In this document: positions 1,691-47,458 of the stretch, one piece after another
How the letters are laid out: each line of letters begins with the position of its first letter
Numbering within the stretch: position 1 is the first letter of the stretch
NCBI GenBank assembly: GCA_965261395.1
Contig: OZ253462.1
Location: forward strand, 768,001 to 832,000
Reading direction: 5' to 3'
DNA: 64,000 nucleotides
Source of the DNA: Candidatus Latescibacterota bacterium
GTDB lineage: Bacteria > Latescibacterota > UBA2968 > UBA8231
Translations under genes and position numbers: made by a program
The notes under the pieces: generated by a model
The model's input: the letters and a program-made list of their open reading frames with translations, nothing else
The model's database searches: none
What the model was told of the DNA's origin: nothing

Positions 1691-4600
1691 ATGCCGTTTC
1701 TCATGGTCTGTCTTGTTGGCCTGTTGGTTTCCGTTCACGCGAGTCCGGTTTCGTCGCCGGTCATTTCGGGTCAGGTGCGGCTGTCGGATGGGTTGCTGGT
1801 GGCGGGTGCGCAGGTGGTGCTGTTTGACGTAGCCGATCTGCGCCGAGGGGCGGTGGGGCAAGCCACCACCGACGAGGCGGGGCAGTTTGCACTGCCGCTG
1901 GCGGCGGGAGGGGCGTTCGTGCTGCCGCAAGAGGTTGGGTTGGGGCCAAACTATCCCAATCCGTTCAATCCCTCGACGCTGATTCCCTATCAACTTTCGG
2001 CCTCTTCGCCGGTGCGGTTGGAGGTGTTCAACATTTTGGGGCAGCGGGTGACGACGCTGGTGGATGGCGAACAAGGGGCCGGGTCGTATGTGGCGCGGTG
2101 GGATGGCACGGATGCGGCAGGTCGTGCGGCGGCCTCGGGGGTGTATTTCTACCGCTTGACCGTGGCAGGTGCGCATTGGACGGGCAAGATGGTGCTGGTG
2201 GATGGGCAGGCGGGGGTGCCGCTGGGCGGGGCGCGTGGTGCGGCGGTGCCGCTGGCGGCGGGATCAACGGCGACGTATGGGTTGGTGGTTTCAGGGGAAG
2301 GGCTGGTTACGTATGTGGACGCGGACTTTGTCGTCGCGGCGGGTCAGGGGCCGGTGGCTATTGAGATGGCGGCGGAGCCGCAGGTGCGGATGAAGGTGAC
2401 GGTGGCGACGTTGGAGGGGATGCTCGGCGATGTGAATGCCGATGGCCACGTGGACATGGACGACGGGCTGCTGGTGGCCATGTATAGTGTTCATCCCGCC
2501 CTATCGCTTCCTAACCACGGCTTGATGACGCTGGGCGATGTCAACTGCGATGGTCGCGTCGAGCTGGCCGACGCGGGGCTGCTGGCCACCTATGTAGCCC
2601 ATCCGTCCGATGCGGCGGTCGCGTCGCTGCGGATTGGTCAACGGGGTGGGTACTCGCTGAACCCGGTTACGGAGGTGGTGTGGGCCTCGATCCTCGGCAC
2701 GGACAAAAAAGACGCCACGGTGGCGCGGTTGCTCGACGGGGTGCCGGTGCTGCTGTCGGGTGTCCTGCCTGTTGACGGCGAGGATCGCCTCTATCTTGGC
2801 CTGGACCGCGCCTACTGGACCCAACAGGGCGGCAAACGGCTCTACGAAGCCTTAAAGCAGCGCTTTCCGGCCACGCCCATTCACGTGGAGCCGTCGATCG
2901 GTGTGGTTCGGCAGGATGGGAAGGGGACAAGGCGGCCAACCACGACGGCCCTCAGAACCGTGGCCCCGGTGACGCGCTTTGGTCCGCCGATCTCCTTTGC
3001 TGAATCGCCCAACGCCGGGTTGCCCGACCACAGCAAGGCACAGCAGGTGGTGGGCCGTATTGGGGTGCCGCATGACGCGACGGTCGGCTCTGTTGCCGTG
3101 GCGGTGGATATCACCCACCCATCTAGCAGTGACCTGAAGATTGAGCTCGTCGCGCCGAGTGGGGTCGCGACGACGCTCTACGACGGGGTCCGAGAGGGGA
3201 TTAACCCCGAGGCCAACCTCGTCGGCGAGTTGCCGGTTTCCACCGAACTGCAAGGACAGCGGGCCAAGGGTACTTGGCAATTGCGTGTTGGTGACTACGA
3301 ACGGGGCGATGCAGGAACCTTGAACTCCTGGACGTTGACCGTGACCCCGGCACAGGATGCTGAGGAGACCGAAGAGCCGATCAACGTCTTTCTGGACACT
3401 TTCCAGGAAGGACTCGGGGCATGGCGCACCACCGAGTGGGAAGCGGCATCGCTTGATACGGACACGAGTGTTCCTGGTGAAGGTCCGGGGAACGTGGTTG
3501 CAAAAGCAGAAGGCTGTTCGGTCTGTTTCCTGACCCTTGAGACACCGGTTGACCTCTCAGCATACGACTCTGTTACCCTGTCGTTCTACCGCTGGCTCGA
3601 CCCCGGCACCGCAGACAACGAGTTCCTCGGTATTGATATCGGTAACAACGGCTCCTACCAACGGCTGACGAACTGGAGCGGTCAAAACGCTGACGGTCAG
3701 TGGCACCTCGAGACCTTTACGCTCTCCGGTGACCAGATCAGTAATGCCTTTTCTCTGCGGTTCTTCGGTATCACCACCAATGACTTCACCACCGTTGCAA
3801 TCGACAATGTGATGATTGCTGCTGCGCCGGGGTCGGTCGTTGTCGAGCCGGTTGAGCCGGGGGAACCTGAAGAAGAGGAGGAGCCGGGGGAACCTGAGGA
3901 GGACCCAGAAGAAACGGAACAGCCAGACCTCACCGTTACGTACGCCGTTACGCCGCCACGGTCCGCGCAGTCGGGCAGCACGATTGCGCTCTACACACGA
4001 GTAACCAATACCGGCACCACCCCCTCGGCAGCAACCGTTGCACGCCTCTACCGACACACCGCGACAACCCCAACCCCAACCCTTGGCGGGACACCAGAGA
4101 CCGCAACCACCGCAATCCCGGCCTTGGAGCCCGGTTCGTCAATACTCAAAGCACTGAGAGCGACTGCACCAGCTATCCCATCAACCTACCACTATTACGT
4201 CTGTGTGGAGGGTAGCTGCAGCGAAGCCGCCGCCGTGTCCGTGCAGACAACGACAGACACGACCCCTGAACCAGAAACACCGACAACCGTCACCGGCTTC
4301 TCTGTTACCAATCCAACCGCTACCCCATCATCACTACAGTCAACTGACACTCTGACGATACAGGCAACCATTACCAATACCGGTACCGAGACAGACGATG
4401 CAGCTATCTATGTCTACCGACACACACAAGAGACAACGACACCACGAACTGGCGGTACCAGAGAATCAAACACCGCAACAACCGGCACCCTTGCACCAAA
4501 CGCATCAGTAACGGTAACAAGTACCCACAGTGCACCAACAGTATTACGTACAACACGGTACTACTACTACATCTGTGCTGACACCTTCTGTACAACTGAT

Positions 4601-31100: not shown

Positions 31101-31839
31101 CTAGGTCAAAACCCTCCGCCACGGAGATGGGTGAGGTTACTGAAGCTTCAGAATACGCCCAGTAACTGTCGCCATCCGGGTCCTCGAAGTCAGCATTAGC
31201 AGGCGCATCCGCACCATCGAGCGACTCTTCGAATGCCTGCTGATCGGCAAAATCATCACTGGTACCGTCGGGATCGTGGTCGGTTGGTTCTAATACTGTG
31301 ATTAGTATTGTTTCATCTGTGACGCCGCTTCCGCGCAAAGGAAAATTTAATGCTTTTACTGTAAGCCCGATTTCTACGCCTGGTGAACCAGGCGCTGCAG
31401 GTGGACCGGTAGTAGGATCACCTGTAGAGGCTGGCCATACATCCCTTGTATCGCCGTCTTGGTTTATGTCGGTACCGGAGACGGATAACGTCACCCGACT
31501 ACTTATCCCGATCCCGATATTACCAGTCCCAGCGTTCTTGGGAGTGATGTTAATCGTCGTACTCCCGTTCGGCTTTTTCCTCGGAATGGTCAGCGTGCTC
31601 AACTCTATATCGTAGTCCGCATCGCGTCCCGCCGCTGGTTTTGGATTTCCATCTTCATCCGTGCCAGGCGCGACTTGTCTCAACAGCAAAGACAGGGTCT
31701 GATCGTTTACCGGCGCTCCATCCAAACGTCCCGTCACCGTGACAGAGGTCTCCTCCGCCTCCTTGCTTATCTCGGCCGGATCAAGCCCGAGCTTGATCTT
31801 ATAGCTCGGCTTGTCGGTGTCGAGCATCGTAATATCAAT

Positions 31840-32945
31840 CTTGAATTCAACTTGTAAGTGCAATCGCTTGGGTAGCTGGCATAGAAAAGGCCAACTGGTA
31901 TATTTTCCCTGGCCATTTCAAACGCAGCTCCCGACGGAGGCGCTTATGGGAACGTATCACCAGTTGACCGAGCATCAAAGATACCAAATTTACGCCCTGA
32001 AGAAAGCCGGGCATGATCAGCAGTCCATCGCGGCGACGGTGGCGGTATCGCCCTCGACGATTTGTCGGGAGTTGCGGCGCAATCAAGGGCAACGCGGCTA
32101 TCGTCCCGGCCAAGCCCATCACAAAGCGTTGGCGCGTCGTCGCCACAAGGCGAAGGCGACCAAGATGACGGCGGCGGTCATCGAGCGCATCGAAGCGGGC
32201 CTGGGTCAGCAGTGGAGTCCAGAGCAGATTGCGGGTCGGCTGGCGACGACCGACGGGTTTCGATTGAGTCCGCAGCGTATCTACCAGCACATCCAGGCGG
32301 ATCGCCAGGCGGGCGGGATGTTGTATCGCCATCTGCGCCACAGTCAGAAGAAACGCAAGAAACGTTATGGAAAAGCCGATGCCCGAGGGCAGATTAAAGG
32401 CCGCATCAGCATGGACCAGCGACCGGCCATCGTGGAGGAAAAAAGTCGCATCGGCGATTGGGAAATCGACTTGGTGATGGGACGTGCACGCACCGGGGCG
32501 CTCGTCTCGGTGGTGGAACGTCGCTCGCGCTATACCGTGCTGGGCAAAGTCCCCTCCAAACAGGCCGAGCACGTAGCGGCGGCCACCATTGCGTTGCTCG
32601 CTGCCCATAAGGGGCATACCCAGACGATTACGGCCGATAACGGCAAGGAGTTTGCCCACCATGCCACGATCAGCCAAGCGTTGGACGCGGCTGTGTATTT
32701 TGCCCATCCCTACCATGCCTGGGAGCGCGGACTCAACGAGAACACCAACGGGCTGATTCGCCAGTATGTGCCCAAAGGGACGGCCTTGGATACGCTGTCC
32801 CAGGCGCAGGTACACCACATCATGGAGCGGCTCAATCATCGACCGCGAAAGGGCTTGGCATTTCAAACGCCGCATGAAATCTTATGCAAGGAAACAGAAG
32901 TTCAACCCAAACATGGCGAAATTGCGCTTACGAGTTGAATCCGCG
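31840..32945 (+). mobile_element. IS30 family insertion sequence
   Basis: Imperfect inverted ends (cttgaattcaacttgtaagtgcaat / attgcgcttacgagttgaatccgcg); 3-bp aat target duplication at 31837-31839 and 32946-32948. Confidence 0.92.
31946..32938 (+). CDS. IS30 family transposase
   Basis: STICRELRRN, WSPEQIAG, GDWEIDLV, TADNGKEFA, WERGLNENTNGLIRQY, LNHRPRK. Confidence 0.96.
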   Translation: MGTYHQLTEHQRYQIYALKKAGHDQQSIAATVAVSPSTICRELRRNQGQRGYRPGQAHHKALARRRHKAKATKMTAAVIERIEAGLGQQWSPEQIAGRLATTDGFRLSPQRIYQHIQADRQAGGMLYRHLRHSQKKRKKRYGKADARGQIKGRISMDQRPAIVEEKSRIGDWEIDLVMGRARTGALVSVVERRSRYTVLGKVPSKQAEHVAAATIALLAAHKGHTQTITADNGKEFAHHATISQALDAAVYFAHPYHAWERGLNENTNGLIRQYVPKGTALDTLSQAQVHHIMERLNHRPRKGLAFQTPHEILCKETEVQPKHGEIALTS

Positions 32946-33597: not shown

Positions 33598-33618
33598 GGT
33601 AGTGCATTCGTTTGAAAT
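33598..33618 (-). repeat. 21-bp ATTTCAAA-N6-CACTACC motif
   Basis: Plus strand ggtagtgcattcgtttgaaat, i.e. atttcaaacgaatgcactacc on the minus strand. Confidence 0.75.
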
Positions 33619-33865
33619 TAAGGTGCGCCACTCCGCTTTACGATGAGTCCTAAGAAACTGTTGAGTTATTAGATGCCTTTAGCGACGGTACCCCTTACTT
33701 AATAATGGCGATACAAATCATGTTCTCCGCGGAACCACCTGGTTCCGTTGGAGTTGACCTGACTTGTGGATTGCCTCGGTTAGAGGCACGGCTCCACCTG
33801 CCTCCGATAAATATACGTTCCAAGCGGTCAGGGAATGTCCGTTGGTCAAAAAAATTCAAATATTA

Positions 33866-35493: not shown

Positions 35494-36474
35494 ACGTGAG
35501 TTCGGGATAAGCAGAGGGACTCCTTTTTGGCTAAACTTTGGTTTGCCGACCAATGCTCATTCAGCCATCGAGGAGCCCCGCGATGAATTTAGTCGAATTG
35601 TTCTGCCACGTCGATGATTTTTGCCAAGCGTTTGAAGGATCATGGATCCGCCACCAATTAACGACCGGGCACCGGCGTCGGCGTCGTGCTGGTCAACTAT
35701 GTTTGAGCGAGATCATGACGCTATTGATTTGGTTTCATCCGTCCCACTACCGGGATTTCAAAGCCTTCTACCAACACCATGTCTGTAAACACCTACGCGA
35801 CGCATTTCCCGGGTTGGTCCGCTATGGACGCTTTGTCGAGCTGATGCCTTCGACGCTGATTCCGTTATGTAGCTACCTCCGCCAATGCCAAGGAGCCTGC
35901 ACGGGGATCTCGTTTATCGACTCGACGCCGTTGGCCGTATGTAATCCCCATCGGATTCATCAGCATCGGCTTTTCGCTGGCCTGGCGCAGCGGGGCAAAA
36001 GCTCGACGGGTTGGTTTTTCGGGTTCAAACTGCACGTGGTCTTCAATGACCGGGGACAACTGCTCAATCTGGCGCTGACGCCGGGCAATGTCGATGACCG
36101 AAAACCCGTACCCGCTTTGGTTCAAGAGCTGTTTGGCAAGTTATTTGCCGATCGAGGCTACCTATCCAAAGCGCTCTGCCAAAAATTGAGCGCACTCTTT
36201 GATCTCCAGTTGATCACCAAGCTGCGATCCAACATGAAAAATCAACTCCTGCCGATGGCCGATAAACTCCTACTACGCAAACGGGCAATTATCGAAACCA
36301 TCATCGATCAACTCAAAAATATCTCTCAGATCGAACACACAAGACATCGAAGCCCGGTCAACTTTATGGTCAATCTCCTAGGTGGATTGATTGCCTATTG
36401 TCATCAGCCTAAAAAACCGGCCCTAAGAATACAAAAGCTACCCGTATTGAAGACCCCTTAAACCGAACTCACGT
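35494..36474 (+). mobile_element. IS982 family insertion sequence
   Basis: Inverted ends acgtgagttcgg / ccgaactcacgt around the transposase; no direct repeat on its own immediate flanks. Confidence 0.92.
35583..36461 (+). CDS. IS982 family transposase
   Basis: [54 protein letters not shown]. Confidence 0.96.
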
Positions 36475-43245: not shown

Positions 43246-44024
43246 AACCCAATAAAGTCAAACGCACCCTCAAAGAGGGCGGCACGGTCATCGGCACCAT
43301 GACCTTTGAATTTTGCACTCCGGGCATTGCCCGTCTCTCTGCCGAGGCTGGCGCTGAATTCATTATGTACGACATGGAGCACACCGGCTGGAGCGTCGAG
43401 ACAGTGCGCGACCTGATCGCCACCACCAATGCCGATCACATTGAGCCTTTGGTGCGGGTGCCGGCGACCCAATACCACTTCATCGCCCGCGTCCTCGACG
43501 TCGGGGCCCGGGGCGTCATGGTGCCGATGATTAGCGACGCGCAGCAGACCGAGGTCATCGTGCAGTCGGGCAAGTACCCGCCCATTGGCCAGCGCGGCGC
43601 AGCCTTCCAAATCGCCCACGACCACTTCGCCGAAGGCTCCATCATCGGCAAGATCGACCACGCCAATACCGAGGGCCTGCTGATCGCTCAGATCGAAAAC
43701 CGCCCCGGGCTCGAAAACGTCGATCGCATCGCCGCGGTGGAGGGGATTGATGTGCTGTGGATTGGGGGTTTTGACTTGAGCAACTTCTTGGGGATTCCCG
43801 GGCAGTTTGACCACCCCGAATTCACCGCCGCCCTCGACCGCGTTGTCGATTCCTGCGAGCGCCACGGCAAGGCTGCTGGCTACTTGGTCAATACTATCGA
43901 GGAAGGAACGGAGATGCTGCGCCGAGGCTTTCGCTGCATAGCGTATGGCGGTGATTTATGGCTCTATCGCCGCGCCTTGGCCGAAGGCATCGAAGGGCTG
44001 CGGACGAGCGTCTGGCGGCGGTGA
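43242..44024 (+). CDS. HpcH/HpaI aldolase family
   Basis: DMEH, LDVGARGVMVP, KYPPIGQRG, QIE, GIDVLWIG..DLS. Confidence 0.92.
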   Translation: MKPNKVKRTLKEGGTVIGTMTFEFCTPGIARLSAEAGAEFIMYDMEHTGWSVETVRDLIATTNADHIEPLVRVPATQYHFIARVLDVGARGVMVPMISDAQQTEVIVQSGKYPPIGQRGAAFQIAHDHFAEGSIIGKIDHANTEGLLIAQIENRPGLENVDRIAAVEGIDVLWIGGFDLSNFLGIPGQFDHPEFTAALDRVVDSCERHGKAAGYLVNTIEEGTEMLRRGFRCIAYGGDLWLYRRALAEGIEGLRTSVWRR

Positions 44025-44083
44025 TCGCAGAGACGCTATCCGTTTGGGTTAAGGCCACTCAACACAAATCAGGAGGTGAGAGT

Positions 44084-44320
44084 ATGGACAATCGAATTAC
44101 TATTGATCCTCAAGTGTATCACGGCCAAGCCTGCATTAAGGGGACTCGCCTTCCCGTGCATCAAATCCTCCGGATGCTCGCCAACGGGGATACCATCGAA
44201 GACCTACTTCAAGAATATCCTTCTCTAACATGGGAAGATATCCTCGCTTGCTTCGACTATGCAGCCTCACTGGCTGAAGAGCAAATGGCCCCTCTTGAAG
44301 TTCTCTCGGGCGAGGTATGA
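44084..44320 (+). CDS. DUF433 antitoxin
   Basis: RITIDPQVYHGQACIKGTRLPV...EDLLQEYPSL; AGGAGG RBS. Confidence 0.9.
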   Translation: MDNRITIDPQVYHGQACIKGTRLPVHQILRMLANGDTIEDLLQEYPSLTWEDILACFDYAASLAEEQMAPLEVLSGEV

Positions 44321-44427
44321 AGATCTTGGTCGATGAGCACATCCCCCTCATGACGGTCCAAGCCTTGCCTATGATGGGGCATGACGTCCGCGAAAAAGAC
44401 GCAGAGAAAAGACGCAGGAACGACTAG
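44317..44427 (+). pseudogene. Truncated DUF5615 PIN toxin
   Basis: ATGA overlap; MKILVDEHIP...GHDVR, then unrelated sequence and a stop after 36 aa. Confidence 0.8.
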
Positions 44428-44436
44428 GGATCAGAC

Positions 44437-44589
44437 CTATACGCATAGCCGAGCTCGCCGCGATGTGGTCTTTGCTCTGTTGGTTGGGTGTTTTTCCAAC
44501 CGCTGTTCCACTCGGTCAATCACCTCGTGAATAACCGTGTGAGCCAGTTGGTTTGTGTCGCGTGATCTTTTGGGCTTATTCTTGGACAT
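44437..44589 (-). CDS. Small basic protein (50 aa, below the ORF-track cutoff)
   Basis: MSKNKPKRSRDTNQLAHTVIHEVIDR...; N-terminus resembles the small KRPRDxNQLA proteins I associate with IS1-like elements. Confidence 0.45.
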   Translation of the reverse strand: MSKNKPKRSRDTNQLAHTVIHEVIDRVEQRLEKHPTNRAKTTSRRARLCV

Positions 44590-44648
44590 GCTATAAATAT
44601 GGGTAGTGTCCCAACACCAAGTAAGCAGATTTCACAGGGAAGACTTAA

Positions 44649-44912
44649 ATGTATCTAAGCGACCTATTGGATGCTCTCGATAATGGTAAGCCTATTGAAC
44701 TGTCAAGACGTGAACTCATCGAGATTTTTCAAAAGCAGAAGCCCTTAAATGACAGCCAACGTCTCGCCTTGTTCCATAGATTGGAACTCCGCGACCGAGA
44801 CCGAGAGTGGCCCTTTGAGAAAGAACGCCTGACACAAAAAGAGGTAGCAGAGAAAACAGGTGTATCTCTTGAACTTGTGAAACAGTATGACGCTGGAAAT
44901 CTGTCCGTCTAA
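44649..44912 (+). CDS. Hypothetical protein with C-terminal XRE-type HTH
   Basis: LTQKEVAEKTGVSLELVKQYDAG. Confidence 0.6.
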   Translation: MYLSDLLDALDNGKPIELSRRELIEIFQKQKPLNDSQRLALFHRLELRDRDREWPFEKERLTQKEVAEKTGVSLELVKQYDAGNLSV

Positions 44913-45010
44913 AAGGTTGGCAACCCGTTTAATGGCATCAAGTATATAATTCCCATTTCAAAATAGGCGACTACCAGGAAATCTTAAAGCCCATAGAGAG
45001 GAAGAACCAC

Positions 45011-45229
45011 ATGAACAGAAAAGATTTTGATGCTTGTGCCTGTGAATTGTCTGATAGGGTTGGGGAGATTCGAATGGAGGTAAGTAAACTTGCCAAGAAG
45101 GCGCGTAATACCTCCTTAGAGGGAGCAGTGGGTTTAGATCCGGCTGCCGCCCTAGACGAACTGGATGAATTACTAGAGGAGGTCGCTAACTCCTTGTACG
45201 TGACCTTCAAAACCGAAGACGAAATGTAA
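45011..45229 (+). CDS. Hypothetical small acidic helical protein
   Basis: 72-aa ORF with GAGG RBS lying between two motif copies. Confidence 0.55.
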   Translation: MNRKDFDACACELSDRVGEIRMEVSKLAKKARNTSLEGAVGLDPAAALDELDELLEEVANSLYVTFKTEDEM

Positions 45230-45280
45230 AACCCATAACTTATCATTCCGGATTTCAAAATAGACCACTACCTCAAAATA

Positions 45281-45429
45281 GGTAGTGGTCTATTTTGAAA
45301 TTGGGCATAGTCGCTGGCCACGTCTTTATTGAGCCGCGCCGGGGCCGGTGGCCTCCCCTGAGCCTTGCTCGGCTGCTGGCTGCCGGTCGCCGCGATCGCG
45401 GCCGCTGAAAGTCAAAGAGAGACACTACC
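45281..45429. mobile_element. 149-bp MITE-like unit
   Basis: Starts ggtagtggtctattttgaaat, ends aagtcaaagagagacactacc; GC-rich non-coding core. Confidence 0.6.
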
Positions 45430-45525
45430 AAAAAAGGAGACCGCAACGCAATTAGCCGATCCTCGAACGAATTTCAAAAAGGATTAGACCTGTGGCTATA
45501 CTTCAGGCACACAAGGAGAGTTCAA

Positions 45526-45900
45526 ATGAACTACGAAGATATTATCCAAGACTTGAGCGAGTATGTCGAGCGATTTGATTGCAAGAAGCAATACAAGCGG
45601 AGGAAAACAATACTTCAAATATATCGACTATTAGACAATAGACCTTCGGGCGGCGATTTCCGAAGGCAGTGGGGTTGGGAAGTAGTAGGGGAAATTCGCC
45701 AAGCTGGTAAAGGTCCGGCAACGATTGTGAACGTAACCCCTGACGCACCGCACTACATAAAGTCGCTGGAAGGCGATACCCAAGAAAACTTCCCCATACT
45801 CCAGAACAAAATCCGTTGTAAAGCGTTTCGGCACGAAGCCAAAAAAGTGTTCAGAAACTATTTGTCAGCCGAGATAAAACAGCTTGAAGATGACGGCTAA
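45526..45900 (+). CDS. Hypothetical protein
   Basis: 124-aa ORF with AAGGAG RBS; no recognised domain. Confidence 0.6.
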   Translation: MNYEDIIQDLSEYVERFDCKKQYKRRKTILQIYRLLDNRPSGGDFRRQWGWEVVGEIRQAGKGPATIVNVTPDAPHYIKSLEGDTQENFPILQNKIRCKAFRHEAKKVFRNYLSAEIKQLEDDG

Positions 45901-45968
45901 TCAGGCAGGCAGATTTCAAATAGACCACCCATAACTTGACGCGTCATCTCACAACCGGAGGCAATGCT

Positions 45969-46517
45969 ATGAAGATCGCCAGTTACGTCCTGTTGGGCCT
46001 TTTATCTTGCGTCGAGGTCTTGGCCGGAGAGACCGCCTTTGATAGAGCCGTTGAAGCCTATCGGACCTACAAGAAAGCCCAGCACGCCTATTTTGAAGCC
46101 ATCGACGCCCACGAAGAAACTAGGCTGGCTTGGGATGCTTATTGGGCCACAGACCGAGCCGATGACGAAGCCCATAAGAAAGCCGAGGCCGCTTGGGAGG
46201 AAGCCAGAGACACAAATAAAGAAGTCAAAGGCGCCTATGCGATTTTTAGTATAACCGGAAAAGCTGCTTTTGAAGCCGTAGACGCGATTGAAGAAGTCAA
46301 GCTAGCCCTTGCCGCTTTTGATGAAGCCGAACGCGCCGTTGAAGACGCTCAAGATGCTTGGTTTAACGCCAAAGGCCCCCGTGAAGCCTATTATTTGACC
46401 GCCCTCAATGAAGCCCATGCCGCCCTTGATGAAGCCAGCGACACCTACCTTGCAGTCAGGGAAGTCTTTGATGAAGCCATCAAAAAAGCCTACGAGAGGG
46501 GCGAAAAAAACCATTGA
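45969..46517 (+). CDS. Secreted Ala/Glu-rich all-helical hypothetical protein
   Basis: GGAGG RBS; signal peptide MKIASYVLLGLLSCVEVLA; heptad-like aromatic/Ala periodicity. Confidence 0.65.
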   Translation: MKIASYVLLGLLSCVEVLAGETAFDRAVEAYRTYKKAQHAYFEAIDAHEETRLAWDAYWATDRADDEAHKKAEAAWEEARDTNKEVKGAYAIFSITGKAAFEAVDAIEEVKLALAAFDEAERAVEDAQDAWFNAKGPREAYYLTALNEAHAALDEASDTYLAVREVFDEAIKKAYERGEKNH

Positions 46518-46669
46518 TAAGGCTTGCTGACCCAGTTCCGATCCCCCTTGGCAAGAACCGTGCCAAGGGGGCTGATTTTCGCAGCTTATTTCAAACTGAC
46601 CCAGTTCCGAATGAAAAATAAAAAGGCCGCCGTGTAAGGGCGGGTCCCATCGTTAGTCCACTAGCTGGC

Positions 46670-47458
46670 CTATTCGCCCTCCAGCGCCCGCCGCATCGCA
46701 TCGCCTTGATCGCGCCAATACCCGTACAGCACGGCTATATCCGTGCCAACGCAGAAGTGCCGCACCCCCATGTCGAGAAAGCGCTTGGCATCGTCGGCTG
46801 TGTTGATCTCGGCGCGCGGGTGGACGCCCATCTCCAAGGCCGTCTTAAAGACCTTCTCTTCGGCTGCGGCAATTTCCGGTGCGCCGCGCTGGCCGGCCTT
46901 GCCGACGCTCATGGAGTAATCGGCCCCTCCCCACTGGACCATCTCGACTCCTTCTACCGAGAGCATGGCTTCTAGGTCGGCGACGGCAGTTTTCTTTTCA
47001 ATCATCAAAACCACGACCACGTCGCGCAGGGCTTGGACGTACTCCGGGGTACCGCCATAGCTCATATAGGCGAAGCGCCGCATGGCTACCCCATAGGTGC
47101 CTTCGTCCCCGGGCGCGTCGGCGCGCACGCAGCGCACACAGGCCCGCGCGTCGTCTGGGTCGCGCACATCGGCAAACAGTACGCTGCCGAAGCCCGACCC
47201 TATGGCCCGTTGGGCCACATAAGCGCGGTTCTCGGCATCGACCTTGATCATCGTTCCCAAATCCCATAGCTCGGCGGCTCGGGCGAGGTTGTCCAAGTCG
47301 TGCAGGTCGAAGGGGGCGTACTCGGCGACAAATTCCACATAGTCGTACGCGCCGGTATGCCCTAGTGCTTCGACGACCGAAGGCCAAGTGGTGTGGATGT
47401 GGGTAGCGAGTGTCGGCTCGCCGGCATTGAGCTTTTCGCGCAGCTTGTTGGGTCTCAT
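46670..47458 (-). CDS. HpcH/HpaI aldolase family
   Basis: MRPNKLREKLNAGE, YDYVEFVAEY, LMIEK, WGGADYSMS. Confidence 0.88.
   Translation of the reverse strand: MRPNKLREKLNAGEPTLATHIHTTWPSVVEALGHTGAYDYVEFVAEYAPFDLHDLDNLARAAELWDLGTMIKVDAENRAYVAQRAIGSGFGSVLFADVRDPDDARACVRCVRADAPGDEGTYGVAMRRFAYMSYGGTPEYVQALRDVVVVLMIEKKTAVADLEAMLSVEGVEMVQWGGADYSMSVGKAGQRGAPEIAAAEEKVFKTALEMGVHPRAEINTADDAKRFLDMGVRHFCVGTDIAVLYGYWRDQGDAMRRALEGE

Follow-up and report, generated by a model that had tools for sequence, protein, structure and literature searches.

A decayed array of IS1-family mobile insertion cassettes between two aldolase-like genes in a Latescibacterota genome

Introduction

Why should four small genes in a Latescibacterota genome each be followed by a copy of the same 21-bp motif? 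The genes lie between two convergent aldolase-like genes in the window, by which we mean the whole 64,000-nucleotide stretch of DNA that was analysed. The original prediction saw here a candidate for an undescribed system: a transposase-free array of IS1-like ends that stacks one cargo gene per end, in the manner of an integron. Our analysis agrees that the motif is an IS1-family end and that the array carries no transposase gene. The array is, however, a decayed set of elements that are already known, mobile insertion cassettes (MICs), and reveals no new kind of gene-capture machinery.

Results

The motif is an IS1-family terminal inverted repeat

Of the seven motif copies that had been claimed, six are genuine. 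All six are IS1-family terminal inverted repeats (TIRs), laid out as GGTAGTG, a variable 6–7 bases and TTTGAAAT. A near-exact search with ATTTCAAAATAGACCACTACC recovered 44955–44975 with two mismatches, and both 45252–45272 and the reversed copy at 45281–45301 with none; 100 shuffles, used to set the chance level, gave an expectation of 0 matches. We also scored sites with a weight matrix of 22 positions, derived from 25 ends in the window's own genome (G000). Inclusion of the window's ends makes this matrix circular, which is offset by the presence of the same ends at every one of 80 transposase loci in other phyla. Genome-wide, 38 sites score at least 16 bits compared with 1 in a shuffled genome, and the five sites within 1.7 kb are therefore far beyond chance. 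The ends and associated features are listed below.

44501–44634, no strand: block common to the interiors of other MICs, 88% identical to 3001045–3001178 in the 2,189-bp element E1; holds GGTAGTG at 44602
44954–44975, plus strand: IS1-family terminal repeat, tip at 44975; 28.8 bits
45251–45272, plus strand: terminal repeat, perfect consensus; 34.2 bits, 0 mismatches
45273–45280, no strand: 8-bp spacer TCAAAATA between abutting ends, in the order right-type end, 8 bp, left-type end; read from the sequence
45281–45429, no strand: 149-bp non-coding unit with a perfect left-type end at 45281–45302 (minus strand, 36.4 bits) and an end of another subtype at 45408–45429 (17.7 bits)
45913–45930, plus strand: decayed terminal repeat, below 8 bits; aligns with the true TIR that ends an element in the related genome G006
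46527–46541, plus strand: partial end tip CTGACCCAGTTCCGA, repeated at 46596–46610; read from the sequence
46543–46571, plus strand: terminator hairpin typical of the family's transposase-proximal end, with an 11-pair stem and then a T run
46587–46608, plus strand: terminal repeat bordering the accessory DNA on its right side; 18.9 bits, 2 changes in the tip

The end at 45408–45429 (AAAGTCAAAG..ACACTACC) is a genuine TIR subtype, found at both ends of two elements with 8-bp duplications (L045 and L047). The copy at 45913–45930, described in the original prediction as degenerate, is indeed a decayed end by homology despite its low score: window 45429–45928 matches the last 500 bp of a 5.8-kb G006 element at 90% identity, and this element stops there in a true TIR, and a contig from run X6 has an intact end after 45920, followed by a different flank. 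At the right edge, 46544–46598 shares 78% identity with the autonomous element described below, at its 3' end. The hairpin at 46543–46571 also occurs within a 93-bp mini-element of G021; this hairpin excepted, a promoter and terminator scan yielded no excess over shuffles.

We rejected the supposed reversed copy at 44602 as an end, given that it has only the heptamer GGTAGTG in common with the TIRs and scores below 8 bits. Its equivalent in E1 reads GGGAGTG, and other copies in metagenome contigs likewise have G at 44604. The window consequently holds one left-type end (45281) instead of two, and the proposed arrangement of two nested units with one left end each does not hold.

An autonomous element with ends of this kind belongs to the IS1 family

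A transposase gene ending in the motif, which the original prediction suggested seeking elsewhere in the genome, was found. G000 carries one copy of an autonomous element (C1:3615699–3620155, 4,457 bp) with the TIR ATTTCAAACTGCGACACTACC at both ends and an 8-bp duplication, TACCATTC. Its 260-aa transposase matches PF03400 (DDE_Tnp_IS1) with 43 bits (cut-off 24.1), and the gene stops 50 bp before the right TIR. In NCBIfam the best match is NF033558 at 88 bits, below the equivalog cut-off of 100. Protein length is kept in about 5–6 relatives or clusters (P0002, P0003, P0004, P0005, P0006 and P0007; 259–261 aa, 72–92% identity), and relatives carry the NCBI/JGI name 'IS1 family transposase'. By eye and by analogy with IS1, we take DEVWSF, ADG..Y and ERQN to be the D, D and E motifs.

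According to ISfinder's family features, IS1-family TIRs start GG...TG and target duplications measure 8–9 bp. The ends in the window are IS1-family TIRs: the autonomous partner has a DDE transposase of IS1 type, every end has GGTAGTG and complete elements have 8-bp duplications. The duplication is perfect around four complete elements in G000. Among 80 loci of relatives, ends are paired at 70, with a perfect 8-bp duplication at 57 of these, and extra ends occur at only 2. The 70 paired elements measure 2.1–4.8 kb each, indicating that all carry cargo. No transposase of the window's TIR subtype was found in G000, whose sole autonomous copy differs centrally in its TIR (5 of 21 positions); in the congener G005, a 2,686-bp element that includes a 281-aa transposase ORF has exactly this subtype at its ends.

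Transposase-less relatives are common in the genus

Three elements of G000 have the window's TIR subtype, no transposase and perfect 8-bp duplications: E1 (2,189 bp, GCTGTTTG), E2 (1,231 bp, CCGAGACA) and a 17.2-kb element (CAATTTCA). The cargo of E1 and E2 comprises homologues of the window's signal-peptide and 124-aa genes together with a remnant of the transposase C-terminus. A 974-bp element in G012 is flanked by the duplication CCCATCCT. In E1, E2, the G012 element and a G022 element, two IS inverted repeats surround coding sequence in the absence of a transposase, the arrangement that defines a MIC. Three relatives, G009, G013 and G020, lack E2: the matches to its two flanks are separated by 291 bp there and by 1,294 bp in G000. 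The empty site is not clean, with 236 bp unaccounted for. Miniature elements of 39–400 bp also occur in the genus, and true ones of 79–333 bp were seen in relatives. With 25–35 ends in several genomes, one IS1 clade is common across the genus in the form of solo ends, miniature elements and MICs.

Some units have three ends, with an 8-bp duplication on the outer pair. One in G022 measures 1,030 bp (CCTCTTTG); another, in G021 and orthologous in G001, measures 902 bp (AAAAATTG) and carries RelE and helix-turn-helix cargo. These outer-end duplications indicate that stacks can move, and have moved, as a whole. Same-polarity stacks within 1 kb were seen in 7 places (five genomes examined, eight regions in detail), and at 5681479/5681632 in G000 ends are stacked with no gene between them.

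The array occupies accessory DNA at a general hotspot

Four relatives (G002, G018, G009 and G005) have an empty site at this locus in which 44020 and 46615 are contiguous, so that 44021–46614 is accessory DNA. Empty-site joints are also present in X6 and X7 contigs. The right boundary lies at most 6 bp from the 46608 tip, in keeping with the predicted placement of the motif at the edges of accessory DNA. The genes of the segment are as follows.

44084–44320, plus strand: antitoxin-like DUF433 gene (PF04255, 84 bits), in the left part of the accessory segment
44317–44394, plus strand: truncated DUF5615 gene (PF18480, E 0.003; positions 1–26 of 110 only)
44395–44511, plus strand: 3'-terminal part of a cargo gene for a small membrane protein (..KDAEKRRRND*) and downstream sequence; MIC fragment with its left end lost
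44437–44589, minus strand: 50-aa ORF, an element-associated small gene with homologues in E1, the G012 MIC and the G006 element
44649–44912, plus strand: 87-aa cargo ORF with a weak helix-turn-helix signal (Sigma70_r4 E 2e-4, HTH_24 E 2e-3, both below cut-off)
45011–45229, plus strand: 72-aa cargo ORF of no known family
45526–45900, plus strand: 124-aa cargo gene of an orphan family, 5 copies in 31 genus genomes
45969–46517, plus strand: 182-aa cargo gene for an Ala/Glu-rich helical protein with a signal peptide

Other DNA occupies the same spot in G003, G006, G013, G014, G015 and G016 (L021–L026), with no IS1-type ends of at least 11 bits; the intergenic spot is a general hotspot and not element-specific. 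The DUF433 gene is missing from the empty site in all four relatives. Among the assembled contigs, parts of the array lack cover in X13 and X14, and there are differences in depth.

We also considered a large element running from a solo left-type end at 33598 to the ends at 44975–46608. It was rejected on account of its unlike flanks and the contiguity of 44020 and 46615 in relatives.

Cargo genes recur in shuffled modules

All four ORFs match the original account (87, 72, 124 and 182 aa), and so does the 149-bp unit; GC content is low (48% in the island vs 59% in the genome). All four genes are co-oriented, each reading toward its end, and two begin 35 and 38 bp past the preceding tip. Pfam and NCBIfam returned nothing for the 50-aa ORF or for the 72-, 124- and 182-aa proteins. 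In the autonomous G005 element, a homologue of the 50-aa ORF (60% over 30 aa) lies immediately upstream of the transposase gene. The 87-aa ORF has a 75% DNA match in G004 with no ends nearby, and the 72-aa ORF occurs in 1 of 31 genus genomes (G000 only) and in contigs of runs X6, X7 and X14.

The 124-aa family comprises 17 clusters in 5.8 billion proteins, with dN/dS of 0.46–0.77; in the 31 genus genomes an end follows four of the five copies. Its confidently predicted fold (model pLDDT 84) had no Foldseek match in the PDB at E <= 0.001, the best being 0.58. The 182-aa family has 29 clusters, none named or with a Pfam domain, and dN/dS is 0.39–0.63 across four full-length copies; homologues are found in E1, E2, the G012 MIC and G006, where the gene is frameshifted.

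Gene and end units recur at other loci and in other orders (E1, E2, G006, G008 and G012), and the four ORFs are not a fixed block, as the original prediction had anticipated for mobile units. None of the three outcomes named in that prediction as refuting it was obtained. The 124-aa gene follows the signal-peptide gene in E2 and precedes it in the window. In G008, the counterpart of the 44954–44975 end (90% identity) is joined directly to the 124-aa gene, and homology to that gene's unit after the end tip begins at 45496, compared with 45430 in the window. That left limits of such units vary between copies fits end-anchored deletions and not a site-specific cassette. The limit of 45430 is nonetheless the same in the window, after an IS1-type end, and in G006, after an unrelated IS, whose partner end was sought beside the G006 unit and not found.

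At 44395 the DUF5615 remnant is fused to the 3' end of another gene and homology switches to a MIC cargo gene, marking a deletion or rearrangement joint. The stretch 44395–44511 is 91% identical in G008 at the same locus, and the gene end with its downstream sequence also lies inside a 404-bp G022 MIC (L149). Abutting ends like those at 45251–45302 exist elsewhere, in G009 with an 8-bp spacer (L148, 16044–16095) and at L115 (10 bp) and L101 (20 bp). The 149-bp unit is a hybrid whose ends belong to two subtypes (AAATAGACC vs AAGTCAAAGAGAGAC), and its segment 45370–45429 is 93% identical to a relic inside the 17-kb element. No target duplication surrounds this unit, the flanks TCAAAATA and AAAAAAGG being unlike; on the subtype mismatch and these flanks we rejected it as a MITE. 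Pairing the left-type end at 45281 with 45429, 45930 or 46608 likewise gave no matching duplication. We accordingly rejected the array as an intact MIC, which has two flanking inverted repeats: 44602 is no end, and every pairing of 45281 lacks a duplication.

A proposed pile-up of fragments trimmed by adjacent deletions

We propose that 44395–46608 is a pile-up of fragments of transposase-less IS1-family derivatives shaped by adjacent deletions, to which we assign a probability of roughly 0.75. Adjacent deletion by IS1-family elements is familiar from classical work on IS1. Section 5.2.1 of PMC9330008 sets out the idea of adjacent deletions with one endpoint exactly at a terminus. Elements would have inserted next to or into each other at a permissive intergenic spot. 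Intramolecular transposition from an exact tip could then have deleted a neighbour's facing end and the DNA upstream, leaving a residue of gene-end, gene-end, gene-end in a single polarity. On the left, a further deletion whose joint lies at 44395 in DUF5615 may have taken the left ends away, and unused inner ends (45913–45930, 46587–46608) would have decayed.

The order of events, the part played by adjacent deletions and mobilisation in trans are what we infer from these comparisons; given that inner units have no target duplication and left partners are all missing, the nested or adjacent history is not reconstructable step by step. With only one good left-type end (45281), the array is probably immobile or almost so at present. 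Two observations run against a pile-up: co-orientation and the 35/38-bp spacing amount to more order than random deletions need, and the left limit shared by the window and G006 is what a discrete-cassette model predicts.

Alternative explanations

Short-homology recombination between the 21-bp ends or their relics could instead have stacked the modules by host recombination or replication slippage, with no transposase step. End relics do offer portable homology, for example a shared ..GCAGATTTCAAA.. upstream of the signal-peptide gene, and a 15-nt end-tip repeat is present at 46527 and 46596. Moreover, the 1,284-bp stretch 44635–45918 is flanked by two copies of GCAGATTTCA (44625–34 and 45909–18), its removal would restore the order of small-ORF block and signal-peptide gene seen in E1, the G012 MIC and the X6 contig, and homology with E1 breaks at 44634 inside an end-like motif and not at a tip. 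However, these repeats measure just 10–21 bp, most junctions fall exactly at tips (44975, 45272 and 45429), which points to transposase chemistry, and complete copies have 8-bp duplications. We consider recombination unlikely as the whole explanation; it is compatible with a pile-up and can act alongside it.

A bolder reading, which we regard as a long shot, is that IS1-family ends serve as reusable capture joints, with multi-end units able to move by any outer pair that is still intact. Such a system would be a counterpart of the integron array that is driven by a transposase and needs no recombinase. Ordered gene-end modules would accrete in transposase-less derivatives, which would pass them on, since every inverted pair of ends can act as a substrate and deletions anchored on an end trim the DNA in between. 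If true, small secreted, regulatory and toxin-antitoxin genes would be assembled by preference in this clade.

The original prediction, a dedicated integron-like platform in which an IS1-family transposase captures gene-end cassettes singly at a resident end and arrays are a selected feature, is in our judgement very unlikely. It would account for an end after each of four co-oriented genes, for the tip-to-start-codon spacing of 35 and 38 bp in two of them, for the 124-aa unit with an equal left limit in two contexts, and for gene-end units that recur elsewhere and stacked units able to transpose whole. Against it, no site-specific recombinase was found (the best TIGR02249 match reaches 82 bits, below the cut-off of 265), units in G008 and E2 have other left limits, and ends stack without an intervening gene. 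Plain two-ended elements also predominate in the genus and beyond (70/80 paired, 57 with a perfect duplication, 2/80 with extra ends). We know of no one-ended or circle-integration activity among IS1-family transposases.

Finally, that the motif is a host regulatory or structural repeat (promoter, terminator or REP-like) which happens to trail small genes is refuted by inverted pairs with 8-bp target duplications, by the transposase gene adjoining the motif at 80/80 loci in several phyla and by the empty site, even though TTTCAAA in the ends resembles a -35 box and, at 45473, one such motif is overlapped by a promoter-like site.

Discussion

Reading the array as a pile-up of fragments accounts for otherwise puzzling orphan genes: non-autonomous IS1-family elements carry them as cargo, and their trailing repeat is a transposon tip. 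For annotation of the genus, solo ends, miniature elements and MICs mark insertion-polymorphic accessory DNA. The IS1 clade itself spans several phyla with its ends almost unchanged and always with cargo, often toxin-antitoxin-like or defence-like, and may merit separate study.

Integron arrays and CALINs, which are attC clusters without an integrase, are alike in having co-oriented, promoter-poor small genes of unknown function, a repeated site after each and content that varies among relatives. Beyond this, the integron analogy is only loosely apt. In attC sites, imperfect palindromes of 55–140 bp, R''/L'' and L'/R' boxes are paired; here it is a single transposon tip of 21 bp that is repeated, and the sole palindrome is the abutting pair of ends at 45251–45302. 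An Rfam scan of 43500–47200 gave two chance-level matches and nothing attC-like, with a library whose inclusion of an attC model is not certain. There is no IntI: in the genome search, apart from the TIGR02249 match, there were five generic tyrosine-recombinase matches, none near the window. Cassette limits are inconstant, and the elements make 8-bp target duplications.

Transporter IS (tIS) of the IS1/IS1595 group likewise have an IS1-family DDE transposase and passenger genes within inverted repeats, whereas the window holds transposase-less derivatives only. Siguier et al. 2009 is a related reference, and ISfinder reportedly has an IS1 subgroup of 0.9–4.6 kb with passengers. The clade studied here usually takes the form of tIS and has spawned, in this genus, transposase-less MICs with one or more genes as well as miniature elements. 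The tIS concept appears in passages of PMC7986276 and PMC9330008.

The three-ended units of G022 and G021/G001 resemble the mosaics built by TIMEs of the Tn3 family, miniature inverted-repeat elements described in PMC4133298 as mobilising adjacent DNA; bigger non-autonomous elements arise in this way that have several ends and a diverse cargo, toxin-antitoxin modules among it. The transposon family differs, as does the duplication (5–6 bp there, 8 bp here), and TIME-built elements were caught in trap plasmids, whereas our case is comparative only.

A close match is the MIC, a mobile insertion cassette mobilised in trans by a cognate transposase (PMC6199540, section 36). For MICs, whose type case is MIC231 of the IS231 group (IS4 family), PMC6199540 and PMC3129680 describe modular, exchangeable modules and a conserved IS-derived region beside one end. 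Two IS inverted repeats, passenger genes, no transposase and target duplications are all present in E1, E2 and the G012 element, in an IS1 setting here as opposed to IS4 there. The window differs from such MICs in consisting of stacked MIC fragments with several same-polarity ends and one left-type end, and mobilisation in trans is putative for it. The array is a decayed array of MICs and not a new integron-like system.

Array content and terminal repeats

The region at 44021-46614 lies between two convergent aldolase-like genes and has a GC content of 48%, compared with 59% for the 6.55-Mb source genome (G000).

Features of the array region (window positions)
44021-46614, first in order: DUF433 gene
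44021-46614, second in order: DUF5615 gene, first 26 codons only
44021-46614, after the DUF5615 piece: four small co-oriented ORFs of 87, 72, 124 (45526-45897) and 182 aa (45969-46517, +; the signal-peptide gene)
44021-46614: 149-bp non-coding unit
44955-44975: motif copy
45252-45272: motif copy
45281-45301: motif copy, reversed
45409-45429: motif copy
46588-46608: motif copy

The five copies of the 21-bp terminal repeat were located by exact search, for which the shuffled-sequence expectation was 0 matches, and with a weight matrix. This matrix, derived from 25 ends in G000, scored the five at 17.7–36.4 bits and returned 38 sites of at least 16 bits in G000 versus 1 in the shuffled genome. 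A degenerate copy at 45913-45930 is also counted as an end because 45429-45928 is 90% identical to the final 500 bp of a 5.8-kb element in the related genome G006, which terminates there in an intact repeat. The original prediction had included all of these copies and a further reversed end at 44602. The latter was rejected: only the heptamer GGTAGTG is present, scoring below 8 bits, and the surrounding block is 88% identical to another element's interior, which reads GGGAGTG. With left-type ends opening an element and right-type ends closing it, the polarity of the series is right, right, left, right, right, right.

One copy (46596-46610) of a 15-nt direct repeat, CTGACCCAGTTCCGA, consists of the last end's tip and two flanking bases. 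The other copy (46527-46541) lies 69 bp upstream, just 3' of the signal-peptide gene stop. Both show the same two departures from the consensus tip; an end-associated duplication or recombination event could account for the repeat. Two further solo ends, also of this IS1-family type, occur at 1530-1551 (+, 33.1 bits) and 33598-33619 (-, 32.3 bits); no partner with a matching duplication was found for either. The second sits in a low-GC stretch (31–37 kb) with transposase ORFs at 31811-32938 (IS30-like) and 35538-36461 (IS982/IS5-like), named by eye from their translations.

Identity of the ends

Scanning G000 revealed four elements bounded by inverted copies of the motif and flanked by perfect 8-bp target duplications.

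Elements of G000 bounded by the motif
C1:3615699-3620155: autonomous element, 4,457 bp, duplication TACCATTC
C1:2999609-3001797: E1, 2,189 bp, duplication GCTGTTTG
C1:4579586-4580816: E2, 1,231 bp, duplication CCGAGACA
C1:6399066-6416306: 17.2-kb element, duplication CAATTTCA

The sole IS1-family transposase gene of G000 lies inside the autonomous element, with its stop codon 50 bp before the right repeat. Its 260-aa product matches PF03400 at 43 bits (cut-off 24.1), and its top NCBIfam match is the IS1 model (88 bits, under the strict cut-off of 100). Among its best 120 database relatives, those with names are called IS1 family transposase, IS1 transposase or transposase. A length of 259–261 aa recurs in six relative clusters (72–92% identity), indicating that this is no one-off truncation. 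An identical (100%) insertion of 1,186 bp, with an IS5-like transposase ORF of 336 aa, lies in both the autonomous and the 17.2-kb elements; the autonomous element also has an internal direct repeat of ~220 bp carrying 73-aa ORFs (element positions 610-831 and 3155-3376).

Outside the genus, the same repeat was present at all 80 of the best transposase loci (L038-L117, public genomes), whose hosts include Alpha- and Gammaproteobacteria, Terriglobia, NC10, Nitrospirae, Binatia and others. Together with the PF03400 gene and the duplicated inverted pairs, this bears out the guess that the ends are of the IS1 family. Both ends fell inside the fetched stretch at 70 loci; the duplication was perfect in 57 of these paired elements and matched at 7 of 8 positions in 4. 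Paired elements span 2,140–4,790 bp, lengths that imply passenger DNA in every one. Given the repeat at every locus, the paired ends and the passenger DNA, the window's ends are those of a widespread clade of IS1-family "transporter IS" (tIS), a concept treated in parts of PMC7986276 and PMC9330008.

The 21-bp ends are nearly unchanged across several phyla (for example, at loci L040, L065 and L087). In the few elements scanned, passengers were toxin-antitoxin-like or defence-like: SocA_Panacea, an nSTAND1/AAA NTPase, HTH_3 with Peptidase_M78, and RelE with an HTH antitoxin (locus L150 of G021). Four genomes (G009, G021, G001, G044) contain a second multi-copy element (~10–25 matches per genome) with a 376–391-aa open frame only ~30% identical to the 260-aa transposase. 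One in-frame TAA is common in its C-terminal matches, and it may be a further IS1-like family whose copies are decayed or contain a recoding site.

In the congener G005, the window's repeat subtype (..AAATAGACCACTACC) flanks an element of 2,686 bp that contains a transposase ORF of 281 aa; G000 has no transposase of this subtype. Since all subtypes share the outer block GGTAGTG and the inner block TTTGAAAT, action of the 260-aa G000 transposase on window-subtype ends is plausible.

Transposase-less relatives and cargo

E1 and E2 lack a transposase gene; what remains of it is ~105 bp from the C-terminal end of the coding sequence, next to one repeat. Both carry homologues of the signal-peptide gene, and E2 also has one of the 124-aa gene; the G006 5.8-kb element contains both genes. 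A 974-bp element in G012 (duplication CCCATCCT) combines a small minus-strand ORF block with the signal-peptide gene. In G022, a 404-bp element encodes an 84-aa membrane protein, and the final part of this gene exactly equals window 44395-44490, here fused to the broken DUF5615 gene. In the autonomous G005 element, a homologue of the 50-aa ORF at 44437-44589 (-) lies immediately upstream of the transposase. The entire 44395-46608 segment is therefore built of parts known from elements of its own repeat subtype.

The 50-aa ORF has no family match in Pfam or NCBIfam. Versions of 50–63 aa (..KRPRD.N.LAH.I..E.I.R.EQ..) occur in the autonomous G005 element (locus L155, 5490-5681, +) and in several transposase-less derivatives, and may represent an accessory or regulatory gene. 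The smallest derivative is a 39-bp unit (locus L148, G009:C1, 12166-12204) whose left-type and right-type ends overlap at their inner bases, and units of ~79 bp occur repeatedly in six genomes (G002, G009, G013, G020, G022, G024).

Open frames are kept in 5/5 copies of the 124-aa gene and 4/5 of the signal-peptide gene, with dN/dS of 0.39–0.77; these genes are real and fast-evolving. Both belong to unnamed orphan families (17 and 29 clusters, respectively, from 5.8 billion proteins searched). The 124-aa protein is modelled with confidence (pLDDT 84, pTM 0.72) as a helix at the N terminus, a sheet of four strands and a C-terminal helix of 34 residues. A Foldseek search of the PDB yielded nothing at E <= 0.001.

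Variation at the locus

The proposed enrichment of the motif at accessory-DNA edges holds here: the flanking genes are adjacent in four related genomes (G002, G018, G009, G005), homology ends at 44020 and restarts at 46615, and the shared terminator sequence begins at most 6 bp from the tip of the 46608 end. Three genomes (G012, G010, G001) have part of the DUF433 gene only, and six (G003, G006, G013, G014, G015, G016; L021-L026) have 4–6.5 kb of unrelated DNA in which no IS1-type ends were found. Across the genus this gap acts as a general hotspot for insertions: it is empty in 4 genomes and holds DUF433/DUF5615 remnants in others.

At this position G008 has a related array without the 72-aa unit, the 149-bp unit or an end after the 124-aa gene; its equivalent of the 44975 end is joined straight to that gene at the 45496 position. 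ORF-plus-motif units recur at other loci and in other orders (E1, E2, G012, G006, G008) and are not one fixed block. Metagenome contigs from four runs in four studies, assembled from mixed populations and so showing the presence of forms, not their frequency, include empty-site joints (runs X6, X7), a variant without 44512-44844 (X6, X7, X14), one with 93 other bases in place of the signal-peptide gene (X14), and an intact end after the 124-aa gene with a different flank (X6).

Origin of the stack

In any single element a left-type end always precedes a right-type end. Nested insertions would give left, left, right, right and adjacent insertions left, right, left, right; the window order would be the residue of either after loss of left partners. 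IS1 itself makes deletions beginning exactly at its terminus, and its circles have a 6–9-bp spacer between the ends. Deletions that start exactly at a transposon's terminus are a described result of intramolecular transposition (PMC9330008, within section 5.2.1).

Variable DNA after tips, three-ended units and gene-less end stacks lead us to favor deletion anchored at ends rather than a site-specific cassette mechanism. Homology of the 124-aa gene begins at position 45430 in the window but at 45496 in G008, and in E2 it follows the signal-peptide gene. If an element tip deleted into its neighbour and the composite then transposed, three-ended units would be expected, and two such units were found. 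That in G022 (1,030 bp, outer-end duplication CCTCTTTG) carries an additional, internal left-type end 626 bp into its length; that in G021 (902 bp, duplication AAAAATTG, orthologous to one in G001) contains RelE and HTH-antitoxin cargo and an inner 93-bp mini-element. Same-polarity ends with no gene between them lie 153 bp apart at genome positions 5681479/5681632, and the 5 genomes surveyed contain 7 places where same-polarity ends are stacked within 1 kb. The pre-deletion stage, a right-type end, 8 bp and a left-type end, may be preserved at 45252-45301; abutting ends of this kind also occur in G009 (8-bp spacer) and at loci L115 (10 bp) and L101 (20 bp).

Several observations count against a pile-up by end-anchored deletion. 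No target duplication was found at any inner window unit, the left limit of the 124-aa unit is the same in the window and G006 beside two different insertions, all four genes read toward their own end (two starting 35 and 38 bp past the preceding tip), and G000 lacks a transposase of the window's subtype. Modules may also have been shuffled by short-homology recombination within end relics, since two copies of GCAGATTTCA flank the 1,284 bp of 44635-45918, whose excision would restore the arrangement that E1 and the G012 element show.

Comparison with known systems

The original observation is largely right, and the three tests proposed with it all came out for a mobile-element origin, but an undescribed, integron-like capture system is not supported. 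The array shares with integrons only that its small orphan genes are co-oriented, that a repeat follows each of them, and that content differs between relatives. No integron integrase was found (best TIGR02249 match 82 bits, cut-off 265), the repeat is a transposon tip whereas integron attC is a palindrome, left limits vary, and an Rfam scan of the array region gave two chance-level matches only. The resemblance is superficial. Mobile insertion cassettes (MICs), as defined in parts of PMC6199540 (section 36) and PMC3129680, have two IS repeats, at least one gene and no transposase, are modular and are moved in trans. The transposase-less relatives of the window subtype fit this definition and would presumably also move in trans. 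The 44395-46608 segment is a decayed pile-up of IS1-family MICs and miniature elements, and belongs to a known class of element rather than to an undescribed capture system.
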